Positions 43,355 through 64,000 of a DNA stretch of 64,000 nucleotides are shown piece by piece; positions within the stretch are counted from its first letter, which is position 1, and each line of letters opens with the position of its first letter. The translations under genes and the position numbers were made by a program. The notes below the pieces were generated by a model, which saw nothing but the letters and a program-made list of their open reading frames with translations, made no database searches and was not told where the DNA came from. Origin of the DNA: Elsinoe ampelina (taxonomy: Eukaryota); the NCBI GenBank assembly GCA_010093995.1, contig ML992510.1, forward strand, positions 385,504 through 449,503, in the 5' to 3' direction.

Positions 43355-45072
43355 ATGGGTCTCGGTGTGCTCGAAGACCGCAAGCTCGCTCACGTTCCAG
43401 GTCAGTAAACACGGCTGAGCAACCGAACTCACTTTCCTGACGTCTCCGCAGGCACCGCGACTCTCTCCGAACTCGTCTCTGCGGACGCTCCGCTGTCTGG
43501 TATTCCGTCACTCAAGAGAAGCAAGGAGGGTGTGATACTGGTCCCACAACCGAGTGATTCTCGGGATGATCCTCTCAATTGGCCGCTGTGGAGGCGCGAT
43601 CTGATTCTCTCGATCTTGTCGCTTCTCTCGGTCCTCGCCTCTACTCTGTCGCCTCTGCTGGCTGCGAATACACTGACTCTCACCCTGCACTTCCGACGTA
43701 ACTTCACCTTGATTGCACTGTTGACGGGATGGCATCTGCTCGGAGTGGGTCTCGCGGGATTCATCTTCGTTCCCTCGGCTCGAGTATGGGGGAAGCGCCA
43801 TCTTTACATCCTCGGAACTGTGATTATAATCATCTCGAGTGTATGGGGAGGTTTATCGGGCAAGAACTACAAGTCTCTTCTGGCAGCCCGTGTCTTCCAA
43901 GGCGTGGGTCTCGCTCCCTTCGAGGCATTGGTCAATGCCAGTGTTGGAGACCTCTTCTTTGTCCACGAGCGAGGCAAGCGGATGGCATTGAGTAATCTGG
44001 CTCTCTTCGGCGGTGCTTTCTTCACACCTGTTGTGGTCGGCAAGATGACCTCGACTCTCGGCTGGGAATGGACATTCCACTTTATCGCCATCTTCGCCGC
44101 TGTCCTGCTACCACTCCTGATCTTCTTTGTCCCTGAAACTGCATTCCGCCGTGAGGACCGCTTCGAGACAGATCTGCTGGCTGGTGGCGCGACTATCGGG
44201 GAGAAGTCATCTGGAGCCAGCGAAGGTGAAGTCGAGTCTCCGACAGAAGGCAACCGTGGTCCTACGATCCGTCAGACTCTACCCATCTTCAATGGCCGCA
44301 AGACGGACGAGTCCTTCTTCAAGCTGCTACTCCGGCCCTTTCCCTTATTCATCCAGCCTGGCTTCTTGATATCCTGCCTCATTCAAGGAACCATGATCGG
44401 CTGGACGGTGCTCATCGGCGTCGTCCTCGCAGCAATCATGCTTGGACCTCCTCTCTTCTTCAACGAAGTCGAGACAGGCTACATGTACACTGGCGCTTTC
44501 ATCGGCGCTCTCATCGGGTTTGTCATTGCCGGCGTCTTGTCCGACAGCTCCGCCAAATGGATGACCAAGCTCAACAGAGGCACATACGAGCCAGAATTCC
44601 GTCTGGTGCTGGTCCTCCCTCAGCTCATCCTGGGCTGCGCAGGCCTTTACGGCTTCGGCATCACAGCCAACAACACAGTCCGTTACGGCTGGGTGCGTCT
44701 CATCCTTCTTCGCGCGAGGGAGATAGCAAAGCTAACATCCCCCAGTTCTGGCCCGACTTTTTCTTCGCCCTCGAAGTCGCAGGCATGGTCATCGGCGCCG
44801 TGGCTTCTGCTCTCTACCTCGTCGACGCCCATCGAGACCTCGCCGTCGAAGCCTTCACGTGCATGCTCGTCTTCAAAAACTTGTTCAGTTTCGGTCTCAC
44901 CTTTAGAGGCTACGACTGGCTCGTCCAAGGCGGTATCAAGCCGACGTTTGTCGCTGTCGCGAGCGTGCAGGTTGGAGTATGTGCGTTGGCGATACCGTTG
45001 TATATGTTTGGCAAGAAGAACAGGAGTTTTTGGGCTAGGCACGATTTGTTGGGTATGCTGGGATTGAAGTAG
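43355..45072 (+). CDS. Major facilitator superfamily transporter (3 exons)
   Basis: MGLGVLEDRKLAHVPG exon, ILVPQPSDSRDDPLNWP, WGKRHLY, DLFFVHERGKRM, YEPEFRL; many TM helices. Introns at ~43401-43451 and ~44692-44745. Confidence 0.9.
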
Positions 45073-48717: not shown

Positions 48718-49095
48718 ACATGGCCGCAAATGCATCGAGATCATTCTTGCATTCGGGTGTGCTGTGTGACTGGTGCTCACGTCTCATGCTCAGAATACCT
48801 ATGAAACTACCAATAGAGTGTGTGGGTGCTTCCATGCAGAGGAATTCTCCTCTGAGCCCTGACCCCTGAAACCGGCCCCGCCCCCTAAATCCCCCCTTTT
48901 TTTTGACGGGAACCCCCCCCCTAACCTACCACCTCATTGGATATATGACCTTGTACGTCTGTATTATGAGCTTAGACCCATCCAGCCATTGACAAGTCAT
49001 TAGCTAGTTGATACTAGCAACAGTTTTGTTGTCACTTTTCGACCGATACCTCGATAGCTAGGACTGATACCGAGCAAGAGATGAGCAAAAAGTAT

Positions 49096-49235
49096 TTCCG
49101 TATCGGGGAATCGAACCCCGGTCCTGTCGGATCCTCAACTTCGGATGAAAGCGACCTATTGCTCTCATTAAAGGATGATCAGGGGGTATTAGATAGTGTT
49201 ACACATACAAATGATAACCTCTACACTAATACGGA
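49096..49235 (-). tRNA. tRNA-Glu (anticodon TTC) with a canonical 15-nt intron (49131-49145) and an extra 53-nt GT-AG insert (49156-49208)
   Basis: Minus strand: TCCGTAT TA GTG TAGAGGTTAT CAT T T[53 nt]GTCG CTTTCA[15 nt]C CGACA GGAC CGGGG TTCGATT CCCCG ATACGGA A. Acceptor, T and anticodon stems pair fully after removing both inserts. A and B boxes intact, T5 terminator at 49087-49091, TATA-like run ~30 bp upstream. Confidence 0.9.
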
Positions 49236-49789
49236 AGTTTGTCCAAGACTGCGAGGTGTAAACATATATAATCAATGTAAAATTGTCAGAAAGAATTGCC
49301 AGGTCCAAAGATTTGCTATGCCTTGGCGCCAAGACACATGTGGTCCTTGCGCTGAAGTCGCATAGGTTGCTAGCGGCTTGTACTTCTCCCTTGCTTGTAG
49401 TGACAGATCACTCACAGATTTGGAAACATTTCTGGACTAAACGAGTGTATACAAAGCGACTACAGCAAGCTATTCAAAGAGTGTATGCGTGAGCAATAAG
49501 AGAAATGCCCTCAGATTGTGCTTTGTCCGCTGCAAATCCAGATCCCGTGCGGCTCTTCCCATCAGATTTGTGTAAGCCGGACCCTCATCCTCAGTTACGT
49601 GATATGACTTGGCCAATGTTGGGTGAGACGTCGTTGAGATGATTGACCAGATCCGGCGTGGACCGTCAAGTCGAGGCATCAGCTAATTGGCCCTAGCTAA
49701 GCAGCTGCTACACTTATTGTCGTTAGTGTAGGGCTCGTCGTATTTGTTATAACTGGCAAATCGGATCGAGAGACGTGTGTTTCATTTAG

Positions 49790-50861
49790 AGAGTTACAAT
49801 AACTAATTTATCTACTATACGTACGCTAACTTATTAGTGCTAGTTCTTTAGTACTAGAGAAGCTATACTAGCTTTCTATTATAATACTCCCTCTCTAGTA
49901 TAGATTATTAAAGCTAGAGAACTATTCTATTATATATAAGTAAAGTAATTAGCTTATCACTTTATCTCTTTATAATTGCTTATAATTGTTAGTATTAGCT
50001 AATTATTAGTAAGAATTTACTATTAGTTTAGCTTATAATTACTAGCAACAATAGTAACTATTAATAATAGCTAGGCAGCTATTATTTATATAAATAGACT
50101 AGCTTATAAGTCTTAATTAAAGAGATATAAGTATCTAACTAGCCTCTTTATAATTTTTTCTTTCTTTATTATACTTATAGTAGTAGCCTTTTCTTTTATA
50201 TAATACTTTTACCTTCTTACTATACTATATTAATAATACTTATAATATAAGTACTATAGTATAGTAATAGCTAGGCATTAGTAGTATTACTACTAGTACT
50301 AGTGCTCTAAGTAGTCTACTAGGTAGTAGAGGTAGTAGTAAGAAGAGAAATTCTCTATCTAGGTTACCTAGTACTTCTAATATTAATTATAATACTACTA
50401 TAAGACTAATTATATATCTTAATACTTTTAGTAAGTAGCTATAAAGCATTAATAGTATAAGCTAACATTAATAGCTTAATTAACTTAGACTTTAACTTAA
50501 TAGTTAGCTAACATAATCTAGAATACTCTCCTTAGGCTTAGGATAATTAGTTATTATAACTATACTAACTTATATTCTATCTAGAGGTCTATAGTAGTCT
50601 AGGCCTTTAGTACCTATAGTATATACCTAGTAGTTACTAATCCTATTCTAGTTAAGGATCTAACTAAGTAAGTTAACCTTACTAGATCTACTAACTACTC
50701 TACTACTTTAATAGCTTCTAGTACTACTAGTAGAGTAGTCTACTATAGTACTAATTACTATACTAAGTATTAGGGATCTAACTCTAGTAATAATTAGAGC
50801 AAGAGTAAAGGTAGTAAGTTTAGTAAGTATATTACTTTACCTAGTTAGCTTAATAAGGCCT
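49790..50861. repeat. RIP-degenerate repeat of unresolved class (host sequence for the C2 insertion)
   Basis: Abrupt switch to TpA-rich, CpA/TpG-poor composition. A + strand stretch near 50300-50380 de-RIPs to a Gly/Pro/Ser-rich peptide, but no diagnostic domain was recognised. Confidence 0.5.
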
Positions 50862-52745
50862 TATTACAAACTAGTAGAATAGCTAGAGCGTAGGAACGTT
50901 AGGACTAATTAAACTACTAAGGTTATTATATAACCTAGCTCGACGTTTACTCGATTCTCTATCTTTTCTAGTAGCTCTACCCTAGAGACTATAGAGTATA
51001 TAGGTTACTAGTAGACGTATACTCTATGTTACTCTCGACTCTTACTATAGAGTATATAGAGTACATAGAGTATATAGTAAAGAATATATATATATAGGAA
51101 CAGTTCTTACCTTATGTAAGTACTATAGTTAACCTTGTCTAGATAGTAAACACTAGTATTACTAAGGCTAGCCTTTATAATACTATCTAATTATACTTTA
51201 TTATCTATAAGATATACCTTCTCTAACTCTTACCTTAGTACTATACTACTATAGAAGTAGAACTACCTCGTTCTTAGCTTAGCTTAGACTACTAGCATAG
51301 GCTATATTTAGATAGTTCGTAACATTTTAACTACTCTTACTATAGTATAGCACACTACGAGGTTAATAAGTAACTCTTGCTCTAAGTTACTATTAGTATC
51401 TTCAATTACTAGCAAGCTAAAAAAGCTTACTATTAATAACATATCTACTACTAGTTTAACCTCTAGTAAATATAGAAGGTCTCTTAGTATAGGAGAAGGA
51501 TAAAGTAGACCTAAGTTAGAAGTAAAACTCTTCTATAGAGACTACGCCTACTTAAGGCGCTTCCTTGTTTAACTTAAAGCCTTCTTTGCTCTAGAGAGAA
51601 ATAAGTACGCTAACGACATAGTAAAAGTCCTCTATGCTAGGATATACCTTAAAGGCGCTACTATTACGAACCGTCTAAACATAGCCTACGTTAGTAGTCT
51701 AAGCTAAGCTAAGAACGAGGTAGTTCTACTTCTATAGTAGTATAGTACTAAGGTAAGAGTTAGAGAAGATATATCTTATAGATAATAAAGTACAATTAGA
51801 TAGTATTATAAAGGCTAGCCTTAGTAATACTAGTGTTCGCTATCTAGACGAGGTTAACTATAGTACTTATATAAGGTAAGGACTATTCCTATATATATAT
51901 ATTCTTTACTATATACTCTATATACTCTATGTGCTTTATAGTAGAGCTACTAGAGAAGATAGAGTATACGTCTACTAGTAATCCTACGTGCTCTATAGTT
52001 TCTAGAGTAGAGCTACTAGAGAAGATAGAGAACTAGGTAAATGTTAGGCTAGGTTACGTAATAACCTTAGTAGTTTAATTAGTCCTAATATCCCTACGCT
52101 CTAGCTTATTCTACTAGTTTGTAATATTACTCTTCTTCTTTAATTAAGTTGTTCTAACGAGTAAGTATTCTTCTCTATCTTTATATGCTATATACTAAAC
52201 ATGCCTCCTAGTTGTTAAAGGCATAGTAAATCTAGTATATTTATACAAAAGAATCTCTCGAAGTTTATTAAACTATTTAGAACTAATATACTATAGGCTT
52301 ATTCTTGTTATAAATCGAAGAGGCTAGACTATAAGGTCTATATTTAGTTAGGTATCTATAGCTAGTATATCGTAAGTAACTACTTAGGTTATAATATTTA
52401 GGTAACAAAATTAAAATAGTAGCGTCTCTAGTCTAAGTATATTTATTTACGAAAGGAATTAGTTATAGCTAAGGCTACTTAGAAAGGAAGCTAAAGAAGC
52501 TTATAAAAAGGTAAAAGAGGCTTATTAAAGAGCTATAGGTAATAAGCTTCGCCTACGTAAAGTAATATAGAAACTAAAGAATAAGACAAAGAAAGTAATT
52601 TCCCTAGAGGAAACCTATATTTAAGTTCTAGAGTAAGAGGAAATACTATCGTTAGTAGATCCTATTCTACTATAGGACTAGTAATTATTTATACCTAACT
52701 CTAATTAGAGTTCCTTATTTAGTAACAATTAGAGTACTTCTATTA

Positions 52746-53210
52746 NNNNNNNNNNNNNNNNNNNNNNNNNNNNNNNNNNNNNNNNNNNNNNNNNNNNNNN
52801 NNNNNNNNNNNNNNNNNNNNNNNNNNNNNNNNNNNNNNNNNNNNNNNNNNNNNNNNNNNNNNNNNNNNNNNNNNNNNNNNNNNNNNNNNNNNNNNNNNNN
52901 NNNNNNNNNNNNNNNNNNNNNNNNNNNNNNNNNNNNNNNNNNNNNNNNNNNNNNNNNNNNNNNNNNNNNNNNNNNNNNNNNNNNNNNNNNNNNNNNNNNN
53001 NNNNNNNNNNNNNNNNNNNNNNNNNNNNNNNNNNNNNNNNNNNNNNNNNNNNNNNNNNNNNNNNNNNNNNNNNNNNNNNNNNNNNNNNNNNNNNNNNNNN
53101 NNNNNNNNNNNNNNNNNNNNNNNNNNNNNNNNNNNNNNNNNNNNNNNNNNNNNNNNNNNNNNNNNNNNNNNNNNNNNNNNNNNNNNNNNNNNNNNNNNNN
53201 NNNNNNNNNN
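52746..53210. other. Assembly gap (N run)
   Basis: Run of N. Confidence 1.
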
Positions 53211-56200
53211 TAATATAAATACTATATCGTAGTATAGCTAGGTATATAGTTTCTTAATGTTAGCTACTAGTATATTAGTATCCTTAGATATTAGCTTAAT
53301 TCTAAGTGTGTTATAGTATAGATCTAGGTATATTCTATAGTTTATATAGAATAGTAAAACTCTATTTACTAACTTTCTATTATTAATAGTAAGCTCTATA
53401 AGTAGTAATAGTGTTACCTATAAGTCTTACTTATAGTTTAGGTAGTAGTATAGATACTACTCTAGTACTTAATTTGCCTATTTAGTTTATCTATCTATTT
53501 ATAGGTAAAAGGAGATTAATAGCTTATGTTTAACTCCTAGTAGATCTATAAATAATTACTAGAATTATAATGTAAATAGCTTATCTCTATTAGTTATTAG
53601 GTCTTATAGTACTCTATATTATAAAACAATTATTCGGAGGAAGATAAAGACTATATCCTTAGTAGTTACTATTGTCTTATATAGTATAAAATAGTAATAC
53701 TTTGTAAATCTATCTACTAGGACTAGAATACTATTATACTTTACACCTATAAGAGGTTCTTCTAATAGTAGTAGAGGTCCTATAAAGTCTATTATAACTA
53801 ATTACTATAGTTTGTCTAGTAGTAGCAAGAGTTATAGTAGGCTATATAGTTTATGTCGAGAGTGTTTAGACTTATAGCATATATTATATATAGTAATATA
53901 TATCTTAATATCGTTTTAGAGTTCTTTCTAGAGGTAGTTTTATGTAATAAGTTTAATAGTCTTATTAATCCCGCTATGTCCTATAGTTAGGTTATTATAG
54001 TGTATTTAAATAACTTCTTTTTTCTATTCTTATATAAGCTTCTAGGTAAGGCTATATAACTACTCTACCTTCGGGTACTTATATACTAAAGCGCTATTCT
54101 ACTACTTTAGTATAGAGGCCTCTATTATTATTATATTTTTTAAGTAATTCGGCTAGTAGCTAAGAGCGTCTACTCCGCTGTTCTTTAATTCCTTAACATA
54201 GTAAATCTAGAAGTTATAGCTTATAAGTGTTTCTAACTATCGAACCTATTATCTATTAAGAACCTTAGTTGTTATCTAATATAGAAGGTTCTTATAGTTA
54301 GTATAGACTTATATAGGTAAGGTTATTTCTTCTAGGTATACTCTCTATTTGCGGAATGCTTTTATAATTAGCCTTTATAATTATAAGTAATTCTTTATTA
54401 TATATATCGTAGTTAAGTTTAGGTCTAGTTATTTTTCGTAAGTAATATATAATTAGGTAGCGTTATTCTTCTATATTCTTCTATACTAGATACACTTCTA
54501 TCGTAAAGTCCGAGGCATCTATTTCTAGTAGTACTTATTAGTCTAGGTCGAAGAGTGCTAGGATAGGTACTATTATAAGTCTAAGCTTTAGCTCCTTAAA
54601 GGCCTACCTATATCTCTTATTAAAGATAAAGCTAGTTTCCTTTTTCGTAAGGTTAGATATTAGTATAGCTACCTTAGAGAATTCTTTAACAAACTTATAG
54701 TAGTAGTTAAAGAACTCTAGTAGCGCTTAAACCTCCTTAACTGTCGTAGGTTCTAGCTAGTTATTTACTAAATTAATCTTCCTTAGATTAGGTCTAATAC
54801 TATTAGTAGATATAATATAGCTTAGAAATTATATCTTATACTTATAGAACTTATACTTAGAGAGTTTTACTAGTAGGTCTTTCTCTTTTAGTTTCTATAG
54901 CACTTTATAAATATGTCTTATATATTTGTTATATATCTTTAAGAAAATAATAATATTGTCTAAATATACTAAGATAAAGTTATTAAGGTATTTTTATAGA
55001 GTATTATTAATTAACTCTTAGAAGGTTATAGGAGCGTTAGTTAACCTAAAGAGCATAACGAGGTACTTATATAAACTCTATTATATCCTAAAAGCCGTTT
55101 TCTACTCCTTACTCTCCTTTATTTATACTTAATAATAGACGTCCCTAATGTTAATTACGGTAAACTATTTAGCTCTAAGTAGTTAGTCTTAAAGTTTATT
55201 AATTCTTAGTAGGGGATAGTAATTCTTCCTAGTAAGTATATTAAGTTTCTAGTAATTAATATATATTTATAACATCCTATCCTTTTTTAGTGTAAAAAGC
55301 ACTCTATATGTAATAGGTAATCTTAATAGTTATATAAATCCTTTAAGTAAGTACTTATCGATATAGTTCTTAAGGATATTCTTTTTATATTTTAATAGTA
55401 GTATAAGACCTTAATAGTATATCGGGGATTTACTCTCTTTAAAAGGTATTTTATAATTCTATAGTTTATGTTAGAGTAAGGCTATAATGTCTTTCCTTTC
55501 TTTAAATAAGTCCTTAAAGTCTTTATATTCCGGCGGAAGTACTTAATTACTTACGCTAGCGATAGCTCTAACTATTAGTTATACCTATACTATCCTTATA
55601 GTTAGTATTCGTAGAGCTAATTATACTTCCTATGTCCTATAATTACACTTAGGGAATTTAAGTGTTTCTTTAATCTAGTCTATGTCTAGATTATATTATT
55701 AAAGCTAGTCTATACTAAGTACTATATTATACTATATATTAACTATATTAATTAATTGTTTTTCTATATATATCTTAATTCTAATTATAACATTTTGTAG
55801 TTCTTAAGTAACTTTCTTATTCTTCTCTATAGAGGTTCTATCCGCTATAGTAAGTAGATAAGGTAACTCCTTCTAATATTAATAAGGTTTAAGCTAGTTA
55901 GTAACTATTATAGAGATATAGCTACAGTTAGCCCCTAAATCTATTATTGCTCTTACCTTATTTCTCTATATCTAGACTTCTAGTATAAAGTAATTTAATA
56001 TATAGATCTTTATTATGTTAAGGCTTTAGCTAGTATTATTGTCTTATCTTATTAGGCGACAACTAGCTAGTTTTTTATTATTATAGCTCCTTAGATAAGT
56101 AGCTAATCCCTTTCTACGCGTATCTACTATTAGTACTATATCTATTAGGTAAGTTATGTTTTGTCGTTGCTTAATATAGTAAGGTAAACTTCTAGTGCTT

Positions 56201-57188
56201 ATGTTCCTTAATAACTATAAAGTCTAATAATTCTCTACTAGTTACACTAAGTAGTGTTATATACTTATATTAGTATAACTATTCTCTCTAGGTATAGCTA
56301 GGTATTAGCATCAAAGACGAAAGTAGGTTAAGTAGATTTATCTTATTATATTCTATTCTAGTAATAGATGTATATTATTATATAGTTTCTCTATATCTCT
56401 ATAAGGTATACTTTAAGTCGTCTACCCGGTAGTAGTACGTTATTATTATTATTAGATAAATCGTTATTTGTATTGTTATATTATAGTTGTTTAGCGTATT
56501 CTTTATTATATTTCTCTTTATTACTGCTATCTCTAGTATAGTTATAGTTAGTAAGGCTACACTAAGTATATTCCCGTACTTAGCTATAGGGAATAGTACT
56601 ATCTATTTTAATTACCGAGAAGTCTATAGTGTATTTAAGACTAATAGTCTCTTCTCTAAGTATATTATATAAGTAAATAGTATAGTACTATTTATAATCT
56701 AGATTTGTACATTTCTAGAGCGATATATAATATACCTTTCCTTATAGTTTACTATAAGAGCTAAAGGTAAAGCTACTATATTATTATATAGTACTTATGT
56801 CCTAATACTTCGTCTCGATAATTGTATATTAGTAATTATTACTAACTACCTTCTAAGGTTAGTTAATGTTACTACTAATTATAGAAAGCCTTTCTAGGTT
56901 AGGTTCCTAGTCTAGCTATTTCGTTAGTTGCCTATACTTAGATAGCTTATGTAGAAACTAACTAGATCCCTACTTGTCTAATAAGTAAATATAATAAAAG
57001 TTATTATAATATACTATCTATAATAGCGTTATATATTAGCTTTGTTATTTACTATTAGTTATAGAGATATTAAGTATAATATCTAGAGAGAATTCTATTA
57101 CCTCTTAAGTCGTTATAGACTTCTTCTATATTTCCTTATCTACGCTAAAGGTCGTTAGGTCTTCTATAGTAGTATTAGCCTTTTTCTC

Positions 57189-58168
57189 NNNNNNNNNNNN
57201 NNNNNNNNNNNNNNNNNNNNNNNNNNNNNNNNNNNNNNNNNNNNNNNNNNNNNNNNNNNNNNNNNNNNNNNNNNNNNNNNNNNNNNNNNNNNNNNNNNNN
57301 NNNNNNNNNNNNNNNNNNNNNNNNNNNNNNNNNNNNNNNNNNNNNNNNNNNNNNNNNNNNNNNNNNNNNNNNNNNNNNNNNNNNNNNNNNNNNNNNNNNN
57401 NNNNNNNNNNNNNNNNNNNNNNNNNNNNNNNNNNNNNNNNNNNNNNNNNNNNNNNNNNNNNNNNNNNNNNNNNNNNNNNNNNNNNNNNNNNNNNNNNNNN
57501 NNNNNNNNNNNNNNNNNNNNNNNNNNNNNNNNNNNNNNNNNNNNNNNNNNNNNNNNNNNNNNNNNNNNNNNNNNNNNNNNNNNNNNNNNNNNNNNNNNNN
57601 NNNNNNNNNNNNNNNNNNNNNNNNNNNNNNNNNNNNNNNNNNNNNNNNNNNNNNNNNNNNNNNNNNNNNNNNNNNNNNNNNNNNNNNNNNNNNNNNNNNN
57701 NNNNNNNNNNNNNNNNNNNNNNNNNNNNNNNNNNNNNNNNNNNNNNNNNNNNNNNNNNNNNNNNNNNNNNNNNNNNNNNNNNNNNNNNNNNNNNNNNNNN
57801 NNNNNNNNNNNNNNNNNNNNNNNNNNNNNNNNNNNNNNNNNNNNNNNNNNNNNNNNNNNNNNNNNNNNNNNNNNNNNNNNNNNNNNNNNNNNNNNNNNNN
57901 NNNNNNNNNNNNNNNNNNNNNNNNNNNNNNNNNNNNNNNNNNNNNNNNNNNNNNNNNNNNNNNNNNNNNNNNNNNNNNNNNNNNNNNNNNNNNNNNNNNN
58001 NNNNNNNNNNNNNNNNNNNNNNNNNNNNNNNNNNNNNNNNNNNNNNNNNNNNNNNNNNNNNNNNNNNNNNNNNNNNNNNNNNNNNNNNNNNNNNNNNNNN
58101 NNNNNNNNNNNNNNNNNNNNNNNNNNNNNNNNNNNNNNNNNNNNNNNNNNNNNNNNNNNNNNNNNNNN
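57189..58168. other. Assembly gap (N run)
   Basis: Run of N. Confidence 1.
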
Positions 58169-61100
58169 AGGTAGTTCTACTTCTATAGTAGTATAGCACT
58201 AAGGTAAGAGTTAGAGAAGGTATATCTTATAGATAATAAAGTACAATTAGATAGTATTATAAAGGCTAGCCTTAGCAATACTAGTGTTTACTATCTAGAC
58301 AAGGTTAACTATAGTACTTATATAAGGTAAGGACTATTCCTATATATATATATTCTTTACTATGTACTTTATATACTCTACGTGCTCCGTAGTAGAGCTA
58401 CTAGAGAAGATAAAGTATACGTCTACTAGTAATTCTATACGCTCTATAGTTTCTAGAGTAGAGCTACTAGAGAAGATAGAGAACTAAGTAAATATCGAGC
58501 TAAGTTACGTAATAACCTTAGTAGTTTAATTAGTCCTAACGTCCCTATGCTCTAGCTTGTCCTACTAGTTCGTAATAGCTACCTTCGAGTAGTTTAAGCC
58601 TTATATAAGTAGCTACCTAGATAGATAACTAAGCCTAGATATAAAGGCTATCTTTAAGAGCTTTAATATCTTTTAGGCAAAGATTAAGTAAGTCTTTAAT
58701 ATATCTAATAAGAAATATATTACTATAATAAAGATCTAATAACTATAATAACGTAGGTCTATAGCCTAGTACTATTCCTAGTTCTAATAACTTATAATAT
58801 ACCTAGACTAGAATAATAGTACTAAACATTTAGTATTCTACTAAGGACTAAGTAACTTAGTTAAAGACTAAATAATACTCGAGCTACCTAATAGCCTCTA
58901 GAAGCTAGTAGACCCTATAATTACTATTAATAATAGACTCTATAAACGACATATAGAGCGTTATAGAGGATATAAGGCAAATACTAAGTATATACGTTTC
59001 TCTCGAAACTATAGAGACTCTATAGAACTTAACGCTATACGCGAAGGTTACCTCTTATAGGTATAAGGCTAAGGCTATAGAGGAAAGTTCCTTAGTAGAA
59101 AAGAGAGAGAGAAGTATAGATAAGACAATCTATGTTTTAAATATAAAAGACCTAGATATTAAGCTAGGGACTACTAATAAGGGGTACTAGCTAATAGATT
59201 ATATATAATAGTTGCCGGGCTAGTAGAAAAAAAGGCTAATACTACTATAGAAGACCTAATAACCTTTAGCGTAGGTAAGGAAATATAGAAGGAATCTATA
59301 ATAACTTAAGAAGTAATAGAACTCTCTCTAGATATTATACTTAATATCTCTATAACTAATAGTAAATAATAAAGCTATTACATAACGCTATTATAGATAG
59401 CATATTATAACAACTCTTATTATATTTACTTATTAGATAAGTAAAGATCTAGTTAGTTCCTATATAAGCTATCTAAGCGTAGGTAACTAACGAAATAGCT
59501 AGACTAGGAACCTAACTTAGAAGGGCTCTCTATAATTAGTAGTAACATTAACTAACCTTAGAAGGTAGTTAGTAATAATTACTAATATACGATTATCGAA
59601 ACGAAGTATTAGGACGTAAGTGCTATATAATAATATAGTAGTCTTACCTTTAGCTCTTATAGTAAACCGTAAGGAAAGGCATATTATATATCGCTCTAGA
59701 AATATATAAATCTAAATTATAAATAGTACTATACTATCTACTTATATAATATACTTAGAGAAGATACTATTAGTCTTAAATACACTATAGACTTCTTAGT
59801 AATCGAAATAGATAGTACTATTCCCTATAGCTAAGTAAGGGAATATACTTAGTATAGCCTTACTAATTATAACTATACTAGGGGTAGTAGCGATAAAGAG
59901 GAATATAATAAGGAATATACTAAATAATAGTAGTATAATAACATAGATAAGAACTTATTCGACAATAACGATATACTACTACTAGGTAGACAACTTAAAG
60001 TATACCTTATAGGGATATAGAGAAATTATATAATAATATATATCTACTACTAGAATAGGACACGACAAGATAAATCTATATAACTTACTTTTGTCTTTAA
60101 TACTAATACCTAGCTATACCTAGAAGAAATAGTTATACTAATATAGGTATACGATACTACTTAGTGTAACTAATAGAGAATTATTAGACTTTATAGTCAT
60201 TAAGGAACTTAAGCACTAGAAGTCTACCTTACTATATTAAACAATAATAAGATATAACTAGCCTAATAGATATAGTACTAATAGTAGATATACGTAGGAA
60301 AGGATTAGCTACTTATCTAAGGAGCTATAATAACAAAAAACTAGCTAGTTATTACCTAATAAGGTAAGATAATAACACTAGCTAAAGCCTTAATATAATA
60401 AAGATCTATATGTTAAATTACTTTATACTAGAAGTCTAGATATAAGGAAATAAGGTAAGAGCAATAATAGATTTAGAAGCGAACTATAGCTACGTCTCTA
60501 TAACAGTTACTAATTAGCTTAAACCTTATTAATATTAGAAGGAGTTACCTTACCTACTTACTATAGTAGATAGAACTTCTATAGGGAAGAATAGGAAAGT
60601 TACTTAGGAACTATAAAATATTATAATCTAAATCGAAACACACATAGAAAAACAATTAATTAATATAGTTAATATATAGTATAATATAGTACTTAGTATA
60701 GACTAGCTTTAATAACATAATCTAGACATAGACTAGACTAAAGAAACACTTAAATTCCCTAAGTATAATTATAAAACATAAAAAGTATAATTAGCTCTAT
60801 AGATACTAACTATAAGAATAGTATAGGTATAACTAATAGTTAGAGCTATTACTAGCGTAAGTAATTAAGCACTTCCGCTGGAATATAAAGACTTTAAGGA
60901 TTTATTTAAAGAAAGGAAAGATATTATAGCCTTACTCTAACATAAACTATAGAATTATAAAATACTTTTTAAAGAGAGTAAATCCCTAATATACTATTAA
61001 GGTCTTATACTACTATTAAAATAAAAGAAGAACGTCCTTAAGAACTATATTAACAAGTATCTACTTAAAGGATTTATATAACTATTAAAATTACCTATTA

Positions 61101-64000
61101 TGCACGAAGTGCTTTTTATACCTAAAAAGGATAGAATATTATAAATATATATTAATTACTAGAAACTTAATACACTTACTAGAAAGAATTACTATTCTCT
61201 ACTAAGGATTAACAAACTTTAAGACTAACTACTTAGAGCTAAATAGTTTACTATAATTAACATTAGGAATACCTATTATTAAGTATAAATAAAGGAGGGT
61301 AAGGAGTAGAAAATAGCTTTTAGGACGTAATAAAGTCTATATAAATACCTTATTATACCCTTTAGGTTAACTAATACTTCTATAACCTTCTAAGAGTTAA
61401 TTAATAACACTCTATAAAAATACTTTAATAACTTTATCTTAGTATATTTAGATAATATTATTATTTTCTTAAAGATATATAATAAACATATAAGACATAT
61501 TTATAAAGTGCTATAGAAACTAAAAGAAAAAGACCTACTAGTAAAGCTCTTTAAGTATAAGTTTTATAAATATAAGATACAATTTCTAAGCTATATTATA
61601 TCTACTAATAGTATTAGACCTAATCTAAAGAAGATTAAGTTAGTAAATAACTAGCCGGAACCTACTATAGTTAAGGAGGTTTAAGCACTACTAGGATTCT
61701 TTAACTACTACTATAAGTTTATTAAGAGATTCTCTAAGGTAGCTATACTAATATTTAACCTTATAAAAAAGAAAACTAGCTTTATCTTTAATAAGAGATA
61801 TAAGTAAGCCTTTAAGGAGCTAAAGCTTAGGCTTATAATAGTACCTATCCTAGTACTCTTCGACCTAGACTAATAAGCACTACTAGAGATAGATACCTTA
61901 GACTTTATAATAGAAGCGTATCTAGCGTAGAAAGACACGGAAGAATAATACTACTTAATTATATACTACTTACGAAAAATAACTAGACCTAAACTTAACT
62001 ATAATATATATAACAAGGAATTACTTATAATTATAGAAGCGTTCTACAAATAGAAAGTATATCTAGAAGGGATAACCTTACTAGTATAAGTCTATATCGA
62101 CTATAAGAACCTTCTATATTAGACAACAACTAAGGTTCTTAATAGATAATAGATTTAATAGTTAGAAACACTTATAAGCTATAACTTCTAGATCTACTAT
62201 ATTAAGGGATTAGAGAATAGCAAAGTAGATGCTCTTAGCTACTAGCTAGATTACTTAAAGAATATAACAATTATAGAGGCCTCTATACTAAAGTAGTAAG
62301 ATAGCGCTCTAGTCTATAAGTACCCGAAGGTAGAGTAGTTATATAGCCTTACCTAGGAGCTTACGTAAGAATAGAAATAAGAAGTTATTTAAATATACTA
62401 TAATAACCTAACGGCGGGGTATAGTAGGATTAATAAGACTATTAAACTTATTATATAAAACTACCTATAGAAAGGACTTTAAAATAATGTTAAAACGTAT
62501 ATTACTATATACGATATATACTATAAGTCTAAGCACTTACGACATAAGCTATATAGGCTATTATAACTCTTACTACTACTAGATAAACTATAGTAATTAG
62601 TTACGATAGACTTTATAGAACCTCTACTACTATTAGAAGAACCTCTTATAGGTATAAAGTATAATAGTATTCTAGTTCTAGTAGATAGATTTACGAAGTA
62701 TTACTACTTTATACTATATAAGACAATAGTAACTACTAAGGATATAGCCTTTATCTTTTTCTAAATAATTGTTTTATAATATAGAGTACTATAAGACCTA
62801 ATAATTAATAGAGATAAGCTATTTATATTATAATTCTAGTAATTATTTATAGAACTACTAGAAGTTAAATATAAGCTATTAACTTCCTTTTATCTATAAA
62901 TAGATAGATAAACTAAATAGGTAAATTAAGTACTAGAATAGTACCTACGCTACTACCTAAACTATAAGTAAGACTTATAGGTAATACTATTACTACTCGC
63001 GGAGCTTACTATTAATAATAGAAAGTTAGCTAATAGAATTTTACTATTTTATATAAACTATAGAATATACCTAGATCTATACTATAACATACTTAGAATT
63101 AAGCTAATATCTAAGGATACTAATATACTAGTAGCTAACATTAAGAAACTATATACCTAGCTATACTACGATATAGTATTTATATTATAAAGAATAGTAG
63201 AGTTTACTAACTAGAAGAGAATTATAGGACTAATTCTATAGGAGAGAGAGAAAGTTTACCTCCTTAGTAGAAATATTAAAATAAAACAACTAAGTAAGAA
63301 ACTTAACTATACTAAACTAGAACTCTTTAAGATCCTAGAAAAGAAAAATAAGAACGTATATAAACTAGAACTACTAAGATATATAAGGATCTATCTAGTC
63401 TTTTATATATTACTACTAGAGAAAGCACTATAGAATACTATACCTAGACCTATTAAACTAAATAAAGAAACATAGGAGCTATAGTATAAGATCGAAAGGG
63501 TTTTATATTATAAATCTATAAGAGGAAAGCGTTACTATCTTATCTACTAGAAAGGACATTAGTATAGTAAAGTAATATAGGAACTAGAGAAACACCTTAC
63601 CTTATAAACAATCTTAGATTACTAGACTAAAAACCTATTCTAAGTAAACTAACTAGGTAGGCCTAATACTACTAATACTAAATAAAAACGAGAATGCCTA
63701 AGGAAGACTACTTAGCTAATAGAAGTACTCTAATTGTTACTAAATAAGGAACTCTAATTAGAGTTAGGTATAAATAATTACTAGTCCTATAGTAGAATAG
63801 GATCTACTAACAATAGTATTTCCTTCTACTTTAAGACTTAAATATAAGTCTTCTCTAGAAAGATTACTTTCTTTACCTTATTCTTTAACTTTTATATCTC
63901 TTTACATATGCGAAGCTTATTACCTATAGCTCTTTAATAAGCCTCTTTTACCTTTTTATAAGCTTCTTTAGCTTCTCTTCTAGTAGCCTTAGCTATAACT

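Follow-up and report, generated by a model that had tools for sequence, protein, structure and literature searches.

Can a nuclear transfer RNA (tRNA) gene depend on the spliceosome? In the textbook division, polymerase II transcripts and a few small nuclear RNAs (snRNAs) fall to the spliceosome, while tRNAs are handled by a protein endonuclease and a ligase. The question is raised by a locus in 64,000 nucleotides (nt) of the grapevine fungus Elsinoe ampelina (GenBank assembly GCA_010093995.1, contig ML992510.1, positions 385,504 to 449,503). We call this whole stretch the window and count positions from its first letter. The minus strand of the window holds, at 49235..49096, a tRNA-Glu(TTC) gene of 140 nt, which consists of a 72-nt tRNA and two inserts of 53 and 15 nt (sequence and ARAGORN). 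On balance we favour the view that the 53-nt insert is a real spliceosomal-type intron in a working tRNA-Glu(UUC) gene of E. ampelina, a judgement that we draw from its sequence. The locus was first described by a reader who saw only the letters (the original prediction below), and this description proved correct in every detail open to checking.

A tRNA-Glu gene with two inserts

The original prediction placed a 53-nt insert in the anticodon stem of a tRNA-Glu gene, between tRNA positions 27 and 28. When 49208..49156 was cut out by a script, ARAGORN called a tRNA-Glu(ttc) of 72 nt with a clean cloverleaf. All pairs were formed in the acceptor stem (7/7), the T stem (5/5) and the anticodon stem (5/5), the last being the pairing that was expected to be restored by the removal. 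The insert-free tRNA also contained a canonical 15-nt intron at 37/38, in which a GAA is the complement of the anticodon and a G is paired with C32. The parts of the locus are the following.

49264..49270, minus strand: TATATAT in the sequence, about -29 to -35 from tRNA position 1, a putative promoter element
49209..49235, minus strand: exon 1, tRNA positions 1-27 (5' strand of the acceptor stem, D arm, first base of the anticodon stem)
49228-49218, minus strand: A box, within the D arm of exon 1
49156..49208, minus strand: spliceosomal-type insert of 53 nt, between tRNA positions 27 and 28
49146..49155, minus strand: exon 2a, positions 28-37 (rest of the 5' strand of the anticodon stem, anticodon TTC, A37)
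49131..49145, minus strand: tRNA intron of 15 nt at the canonical position 37/38 (ARAGORN)
49096..49130, minus strand: exon 2b, positions 38-73 (3' strand of the anticodon stem, T arm, 3' strand of the acceptor stem, discriminator A)
49117-49107, minus strand: B box, within the T arm of exon 2b
49087..49091, minus strand: run of five T (T5), candidate RNA polymerase III terminator, 4 nt past the gene

With the insert removed, the cloverleaf stems, the anticodon TTC and the A and B boxes are all intact. Together with the pairing between anticodon and intron and the T5 run, they bear out the claim that the gene shows no decay.

It was also expected that tRNA finders would overlook such a gene, and this is what we observed. 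Default ARAGORN reported no tRNA gene in the whole 64-kb window, and no Rfam family matched the window at gathering thresholds. With E-values up to 10, Rfam matched the T arm alone within 48900-49450, and to unrelated families. When introns were allowed, ARAGORN proposed a tRNA-Leu(gag) with a 67-nt intron at 31/32. We rejected this call for its mismatched anticodon stem, for the place of its intron and for the missing long variable arm that a tRNA-Leu should have. The B-box match GGTTCGATTCC at 49107-49117, within the tRNA-Glu gene, was the sole one in the window. Neither the B-box search nor the in-silico removal of GT..AG segments (see below) disclosed a further hidden tRNA gene in the window.

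That standard finders see no tRNA at the locus would also suit a dead or dying gene copy. In this explanation one tRNA-Glu(TTC) copy was inactivated when a 53-nt piece of DNA entered it, and the tRNA comes from other copies. The piece could be a messenger RNA (mRNA) intron that reverse-spliced into the tRNA and was then copied back, or filler from the repair of a break. Polymerase III transcription would persist via the A and B boxes, and the misfolded RNA would stay unmatured and be seen as read-through or degradation products. The intact exons are no argument against such a copy because a recent insertion would leave them undecayed. Spare copies, on the other hand, are less likely here than in most fungi, since the tRNA gene set of E. 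ampelina seems to be very small. We consider a dead copy the main rival, possible but less likely than a working gene, and return to it where other evidence touches it.

The 53-nt insert carries the signals of a short GT-AG intron

The insert begins with GTATGT (49208-49203), which fits GTRNGT, and ends with TAG (49158-49156), which fits YAG. Three branch-like motifs lie between these ends, so that all the splice signals claimed in the original prediction are found at the insert.

49178..49182, minus strand: CTGAT, branch-site candidate, A 23 nt from the 3' end
49167..49171, minus strand: TTAAT, weaker branch-site candidate, A 12 nt from the 3' end
49188..49192, minus strand: CTAAT, branch-like motif, A 33 nt from the 3' end

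When folding of the unspliced RNA is predicted, the insert forms a helix with the 3' strand of the anticodon stem from which the A of CTGAT bulges as a single base; this may be chance.

Two mRNA introns of the same window, both in an MFS transporter gene, served for comparison. They are verified by RNA, being skipped in four of four runs. One (43401-43451) is 51 nt long and reads GTCAGT .. CTGAC .. CAG; the other (44693-44745) is 53 nt long and reads GTGCGT .. CTAAC .. CAG. The branch A of both lies 10-11 nt from the 3' end. With its 53 nt the insert has the size of these introns, as had been noted. The original prediction had cautioned that the insert boundary can slide by 2 nt, and cuts moved by 1 or 2 nt did give an identical product; GT..AG ends occur in the first register alone.

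We then counted how often such signals occur by chance. Among the 127,894 53-mers on both strands of the window, nine have GTRNGT..YAG ends. When CTRAY 8-40 nt from the 3' end is added, two of the 127,894 are left, namely the insert and the verified intron 44693-44745. Since random 53-mers carry all three signals at about this rate, the insert, judged by its letters, must be derived from an intron or shaped by selection into the form of one. Both possibilities count against a dead copy: the three signals are this rare in random 53-mers, and an intron-derived insert would keep everything that the spliceosome needs. A removal scan gave a similarly narrow result. Every GT..AG segment of 35-100 nt in the window (n=39,332) was taken out and ARAGORN was run across the junction. 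A tRNA spanning the junction appeared solely at the tRNA-Glu locus (22 register variants), besides one spurious call.

Tests of endonuclease and repeat origins of the insert

One rival named in the original prediction was a bulge-helix-bulge (BHB) motif cut by the tRNA endonuclease. We scanned for two 3-nt bulges on opposite strands, 4 bp apart (3-4-3), with the canonical 15-nt intron as the control. The control scored a central helix of 4/4 and an outer helix of 3/3. At the insert ends the motif was absent: the registers that preserve the product (27/80, 28/81 and 29/82) had 0-3 of 4 pairs in the central helix, and their best total was 7/10, with a central helix of 2/4. In addition, the insert is positioned at 27/28 and not at the 37/38 of the eukaryotic ruler mechanism, where the 15-nt intron alone is found. 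For these two reasons we rejected the insert as a tRNA-endonuclease intron.

We also considered that the insert might be a repeat, a transposon or an introner-like element, and found no sign of this within the 64-kb window. There is no second copy of the insert in the window, where 16 nt at 94% (E 0.13) make up the best other match. Inspection by eye showed no terminal inverted repeats at the insert, and its flanking repeat is limited to the 2-nt GT. A scan of metagenomes with a word from the D arm returned 72 loci, none of which was an orthologue of the tRNA-Glu gene.

Predicted pairing between the insert and the tRNA

The unspliced gene is predicted to fold at -44.0 kcal/mol (z = -2.95), and in this fold 39 of the 53 insert bases pair with the flanking parts of the tRNA. 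Shuffled inserts formed 15.2 +/- 5.8 such cross pairs and none of 1000 reached 39, a number that was reached by 2 of 1000 random genomic 53-mers. For the duplex of the insert with the downstream part, -28.4 kcal/mol is predicted; shuffled inserts give -16.9 +/- 3.1, and 3 of 1000 do as well. [quoted passage not shown] The duplex energy with exon 1 was not significant, as 162 of 1000 shuffles did equally well.

At the level of DNA we found no corresponding similarity. The reverse complement of exon 1 was matched equally well by 650 of 2000 shuffles and that of the downstream part by 123 of 2000, and the 300-nt flanks, compared with the insert in both orientations, were not significant either. 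Because the inverted similarity is not significant in DNA, we do not think that the insert is a product of fold-back repair, and we rejected the idea that it is an inverted copy of its flanks made by fold-back or templated repair. In view of the model fold, the complementarity may prevent the precursor from taking the tRNA fold before the insert has gone; alternatively, it may be left over from the way in which the insert arose. The predicted departure from the cloverleaf in the unspliced RNA, with its 39 pairs between insert and flanks, would also fit a dead copy.

The same pairing brings in another explanation, in which a structure-guided endonuclease and a ligase cut hairpin loops at the junctions and the spliceosome plays no part. 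The enzyme could be the tRNA endonuclease acting on a relaxed motif, or another one, and the removal would have its likes in the non-conventional introns of euglenids or, in archaea and some algae, in non-canonical tRNA introns. The 39 cross pairs and the -28.4 kcal/mol downstream duplex, both beyond the shuffles, speak for it, and so does the prediction that both junctions lie in hairpin loops. A free RNA end at 49155, where the RNA contigs of two runs stop (X4 and X7, see below), would be a product of an endonuclease and not of the spliceosome. Nevertheless, a BHB motif occurs at no register that preserves the product, and the junction loops UU/GU and AAUAG/GUC fit no cleavage motif known to us. 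The GTATGT..TAG ends and the host-typical length would become a coincidence. Removal of this kind is improbable in our view.

RNA contigs over the locus

The RNA data are assembled contigs from long-RNA libraries of four runs (X3, X4, X7 and X11) from three studies, and they carry no strand. Since all four skip both MFS introns, they represent RNA. The contigs over the locus are as follows.

48929-49132, strandless: X3 contig, depth 87
48927-49155, strandless: X4 contig, depth 6.8, with one extra letter off the genomic continuation
48909-49155, strandless: X7 contig, depth 14, with three extra letters off the genomic continuation
48954-49208, strandless: X11 contig, depth 2.8
48909..49208, strandless: stretch covered by RNA contigs of the four runs, with right ends at 49132, 49155, 49155 and 49208

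The tRNA-Glu locus is transcribed. The X4 and X7 contigs, from two studies, both end at 49155, the first base after the insert. The left (upstream) ends of the MFS contigs, in comparison, are scattered: 43228 (X4), 43237 (X7), 43270 (X11) and about 43357 (X3). The identical end at 49155 therefore indicates a sharp feature. Such ends would match a spliced RNA with an exon 1 of 27 nt, as contigs built from 31-letter words fade near a 5' end. Exon 1 and its upstream region (49209-49525) are uncovered in the four runs, save for 0.02 in the X3 bin 49275-49525, which is not evidence of absence. The contig ends hint weakly that the RNA is discontinuous at both boundaries of the insert; we do not count them as evidence of splicing. 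A dead copy leaves these ends at both junctions unexplained.

Could the 53 nt be absent from the real genome and arise from the assembly? The X11 contig comes from another sample and another study, and it is colinear with the genome through the insert and downstream of 49208, with a single-nucleotide polymorphism in the trailer as the sole difference. We found nothing in favour of an assembly artefact and regard it as negligible. The difference is at 49093, 3 nt past the tRNA 3' end, where X4, X7 and X11, and not X3, have T>C (A>G on the gene strand). No sequence differences inside the tRNA or the insert are listed for the contigs of the four runs.

Between the 3' end of a P450 gene and the tRNA trailer lies a homopolymer-rich tract (48861-48920) with G8, A8, G6, G5 and G4 on the minus strand. 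The contigs of all four runs break at their left end in this tract, so the P450 transcript and the RNA of the tRNA locus may be one molecule or two.

Weighing a proposed spliceosomal intron in a working gene

Several points weigh against the interpretation that we favour. All branch motifs of the insert end in T and are weaker than the CTGAC and CTAAC of the verified introns, in agreement with the caution in the original prediction that the branch site is imperfect. The exon bases ahead of the 5' splice site are TT. Since the window was picked from a very large scan, a rare chance match stays possible on sequence statistics alone. Sisodia and colleagues reportedly found in 1987 that polymerase III transcripts remain unspliced in animal cells.

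The RNA adds to this. The insert is kept in full in the X11 contig, which ends on the first insert base, 49208. The joint of exon 1 to exon 2 (49209/49155) is in none of the contigs of the four runs, although contigs cannot show its absence. All four contigs retain the 15-nt intron and extend about 190 nt past the T5 run, features that one would sooner expect of an aberrant or read-through transcript than of a productive precursor. The RNA at 48909-49208 could be antisense or read-through. For the one to three extra letters after 49155, a poly(A) tail that begins there is an equally good explanation, since splicing and polyadenylation both predict A on the plus strand. Both insert boundaries also sit in predicted hairpin loops, which might favour breaks in the contigs. 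A dead copy would be in keeping with the insert retained in X11, with the lack of a joined contig and with the 15-nt intron and the run past the terminator in all four.

The claim that the pre-tRNA needs both the spliceosome and the tRNA endonuclease thus stood in part. The splice signals, the size, the restored stem, the failed BHB test and the lack of a second copy in the window speak for it, and the missing joined contig and the insert kept in X11 speak against it. From its sequence, the gene is likely to depend on the spliceosome.

In the pathway that follows, the role of polymerase III, removal by the spliceosome and the sequence of the steps are our inference. RNA polymerase III would transcribe the gene from the internal A and B boxes. 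Since the insert splits the anticodon stem at 27/28, the tRNA endonuclease would have no anticodon stem to measure from. The spliceosome would remove the insert as a short GT-AG intron, using GTATGT, the CTGAT or TTAAT branch and TAG. Joining would restore the anticodon stem of 5 bp and give a pre-tRNA of 87 nt, from which the tRNA splicing endonuclease and the ligase would then remove the 15-nt intron at 37/38 by their established pathway. More speculatively, the pairing of the insert with the anticodon arm and the 15-nt intron may hold the transcript in a non-tRNA fold until the first splicing.

Genomic surroundings

The tRNA-Glu gene lies at the right edge of a block (24-50 kb) with 46-62% G+C, which holds MFS, fungal-rhodopsin-domain, GNAT and P450 genes. 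The 413 residues of the MFS transporter exon are 100% identical to an E. ampelina protein, 92% to E. fawcettii, 82% to Sphaceloma murrayae, 81% to E. australis and 77% to Myriangium duriaei, in accordance with an origin of the window from E. ampelina, a Dothideomycete. A position at the edge of an AT-rich, repeat-like block would again suit a dead copy.

The flanking blocks (1-24000 and 50000-64000) have 16-35% G+C and give the window an isochore-like appearance. In Dothideomycetes such an arrangement is a typical mark of repeat-induced point mutation. Within the AT-rich block, the assembly has a gap of about 484 nt, filled with N, at 52727-53210, which gives rise to spurious open frames in all six frames. 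At the block border (49745-49925) the summed RNA depth of X3 rises to about 780, with many loose-ended contigs and C/T differences, and the segment looks like a transcribed multi-copy element. The X7 contig over the MFS gene and its neighbour covers two genes on opposite strands and has eight non-genomic letters (AAAAAAAC, plus strand) after 46484.

Relation to known introns

The nearest parallel is found in the U6 snRNA genes of Schizosaccharomyces pombe and other fungi, which contain spliceosomal introns (Tani and Ohshima 1989, 1991; reviewed in the relevant passages of PMC5855946). As in U6, a short GT-AG intron with canonical 5', branch and 3' sites lies in a small structured gene, presumably transcribed by polymerase III. 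The U6 introns otherwise lack sequence conservation, and reverse splicing is the usual proposal for their origin. The proximity argument for reverse splicing does not apply here because a tRNA is not located in the spliceosome's active site. Our case differs from U6 in that the host is a tRNA, which has a second intron of the protein-enzyme type, and in that splicing of the insert is predicted from its sequence.

Spliceosomal introns have also been found in U1, U2 and U5 of Rhodotorula hasegawae and in the ribosomal DNA (rDNA) of ascomycetes (Takahashi 1993, 1996; Bhattacharya 2000; as cited in PMC5855946). The hosts named in the passages of this U6 review are U6, U2, U5, U1 and rRNA (PMC5855946). 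These too are fungal hosts other than mRNA, among them some that are not polymerase II products and some outside the catalytic centre (U1, rRNA). None of these introns is in a tRNA, and none joins two splicing systems in one transcript.

The 15-nt intron belongs to a well-described class. Removal of canonical nuclear tRNA introns at 37/38 is the work of the tRNA splicing endonuclease together with the Trl1 ligase (PMC10946435, PMC10275265). The 15-nt intron resembles them in its position, its pairing with the anticodon and the C32-G pair three bases before the 3' cut. The insert differs in lying at 27/28, within a stem, and its removal would have to precede the formation of the endonuclease substrate. 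Non-canonical tRNA introns with BHB motifs occur in archaea, in Cyanidioschyzon merolae and in nucleomorphs, and are cut by the tRNA endonuclease. Like the genes with such introns, the locus is missed by standard finders and has more than one intron, with the extra one away from 37/38. Unlike the ends of those introns, the ends of the insert failed the BHB test and are GT..AG with a branch motif.

Introner-like elements of Dothideomycetes, which van der Burgt in 2012 and Collemare in 2015 are said to have described, are reportedly recently inserted spliceosomal introns with predicted structure. They come from the same class of fungi as Elsinoe but are multi-copy, whereas the insert is single in the 64-kb window. 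Our literature search, which covered few subscription journals, found no report of a spliceosomal intron in a tRNA gene. If the intron is real, it would add a new kind of host: spliceosomal introns are known in fungal non-coding RNA genes, and not in a tRNA or beside a tRNA-type intron.

Possible hidden tRNA genes in Elsinoe

A survey of 459 fungal genomes lists 11 species with fewer than 30 anticodon types, and E. ampelina is among them (PMC8826637). Its supplementary table gives this species 25 tRNA genes with 22 anticodon types, a number below the minimum for decoding; other Dothideomycetes in the same passage of the table have 57-113 genes and 39-42 types (PMC8826637). The searchable text of the supplement holds no counts per anticodon for E. 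ampelina. The genome papers, as far as their relevant parts go, report 43 tRNA genes for E. fawcettii, 74 for E. mangiferae, 78 for E. perseae, and either 105 or 150 for E. batatas, where text and table of the paper disagree.

In its passages on small sets, the survey explains them by import of host tRNA, super-wobbling or adaptation to lifestyle, for example selection for rapid replication (PMC8826637). Since a fungus capable of free living must decode all codons, genes that are invisible to tRNAscan-SE are the simplest explanation. It is plausible that E. ampelina holds functional tRNA genes hidden from this program, and the tRNA-Glu(TTC) gene studied here is one such hidden gene.

A further step is tentative, and we think it rather unlikely. 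Many tRNA genes of E. ampelina, and perhaps of other fungi with small sets, would be interrupted by spliceosomal introns, which would make the tRNA supply dependent on the spliceosome across the genome and let finders miss these genes systematically. The tRNA-Glu locus would then be the first visible case of a hidden class, with Erythrobasidium hasegawianum as another candidate. We take this name to be the current one of Rhodotorula hasegawae, the species with spliceosomal introns in its U1, U2, U5 and U6 genes; this is a lead and not a result. The supplementary table of the survey lists 38 tRNA genes with 19 anticodon types for E. hasegawianum (PMC8826637).

If the 53-nt insert is truly spliced out, the tRNA would be the first one known to depend on the spliceosome. 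A single tRNA would then need both splicing systems, in a fixed order, and pre-tRNAs made by polymerase III would prove to be open to the spliceosome. The case would expose a blind spot in tRNA gene finders, and it would give a concrete, testable explanation for fungi whose sets of tRNA types seem too small for the genetic code.

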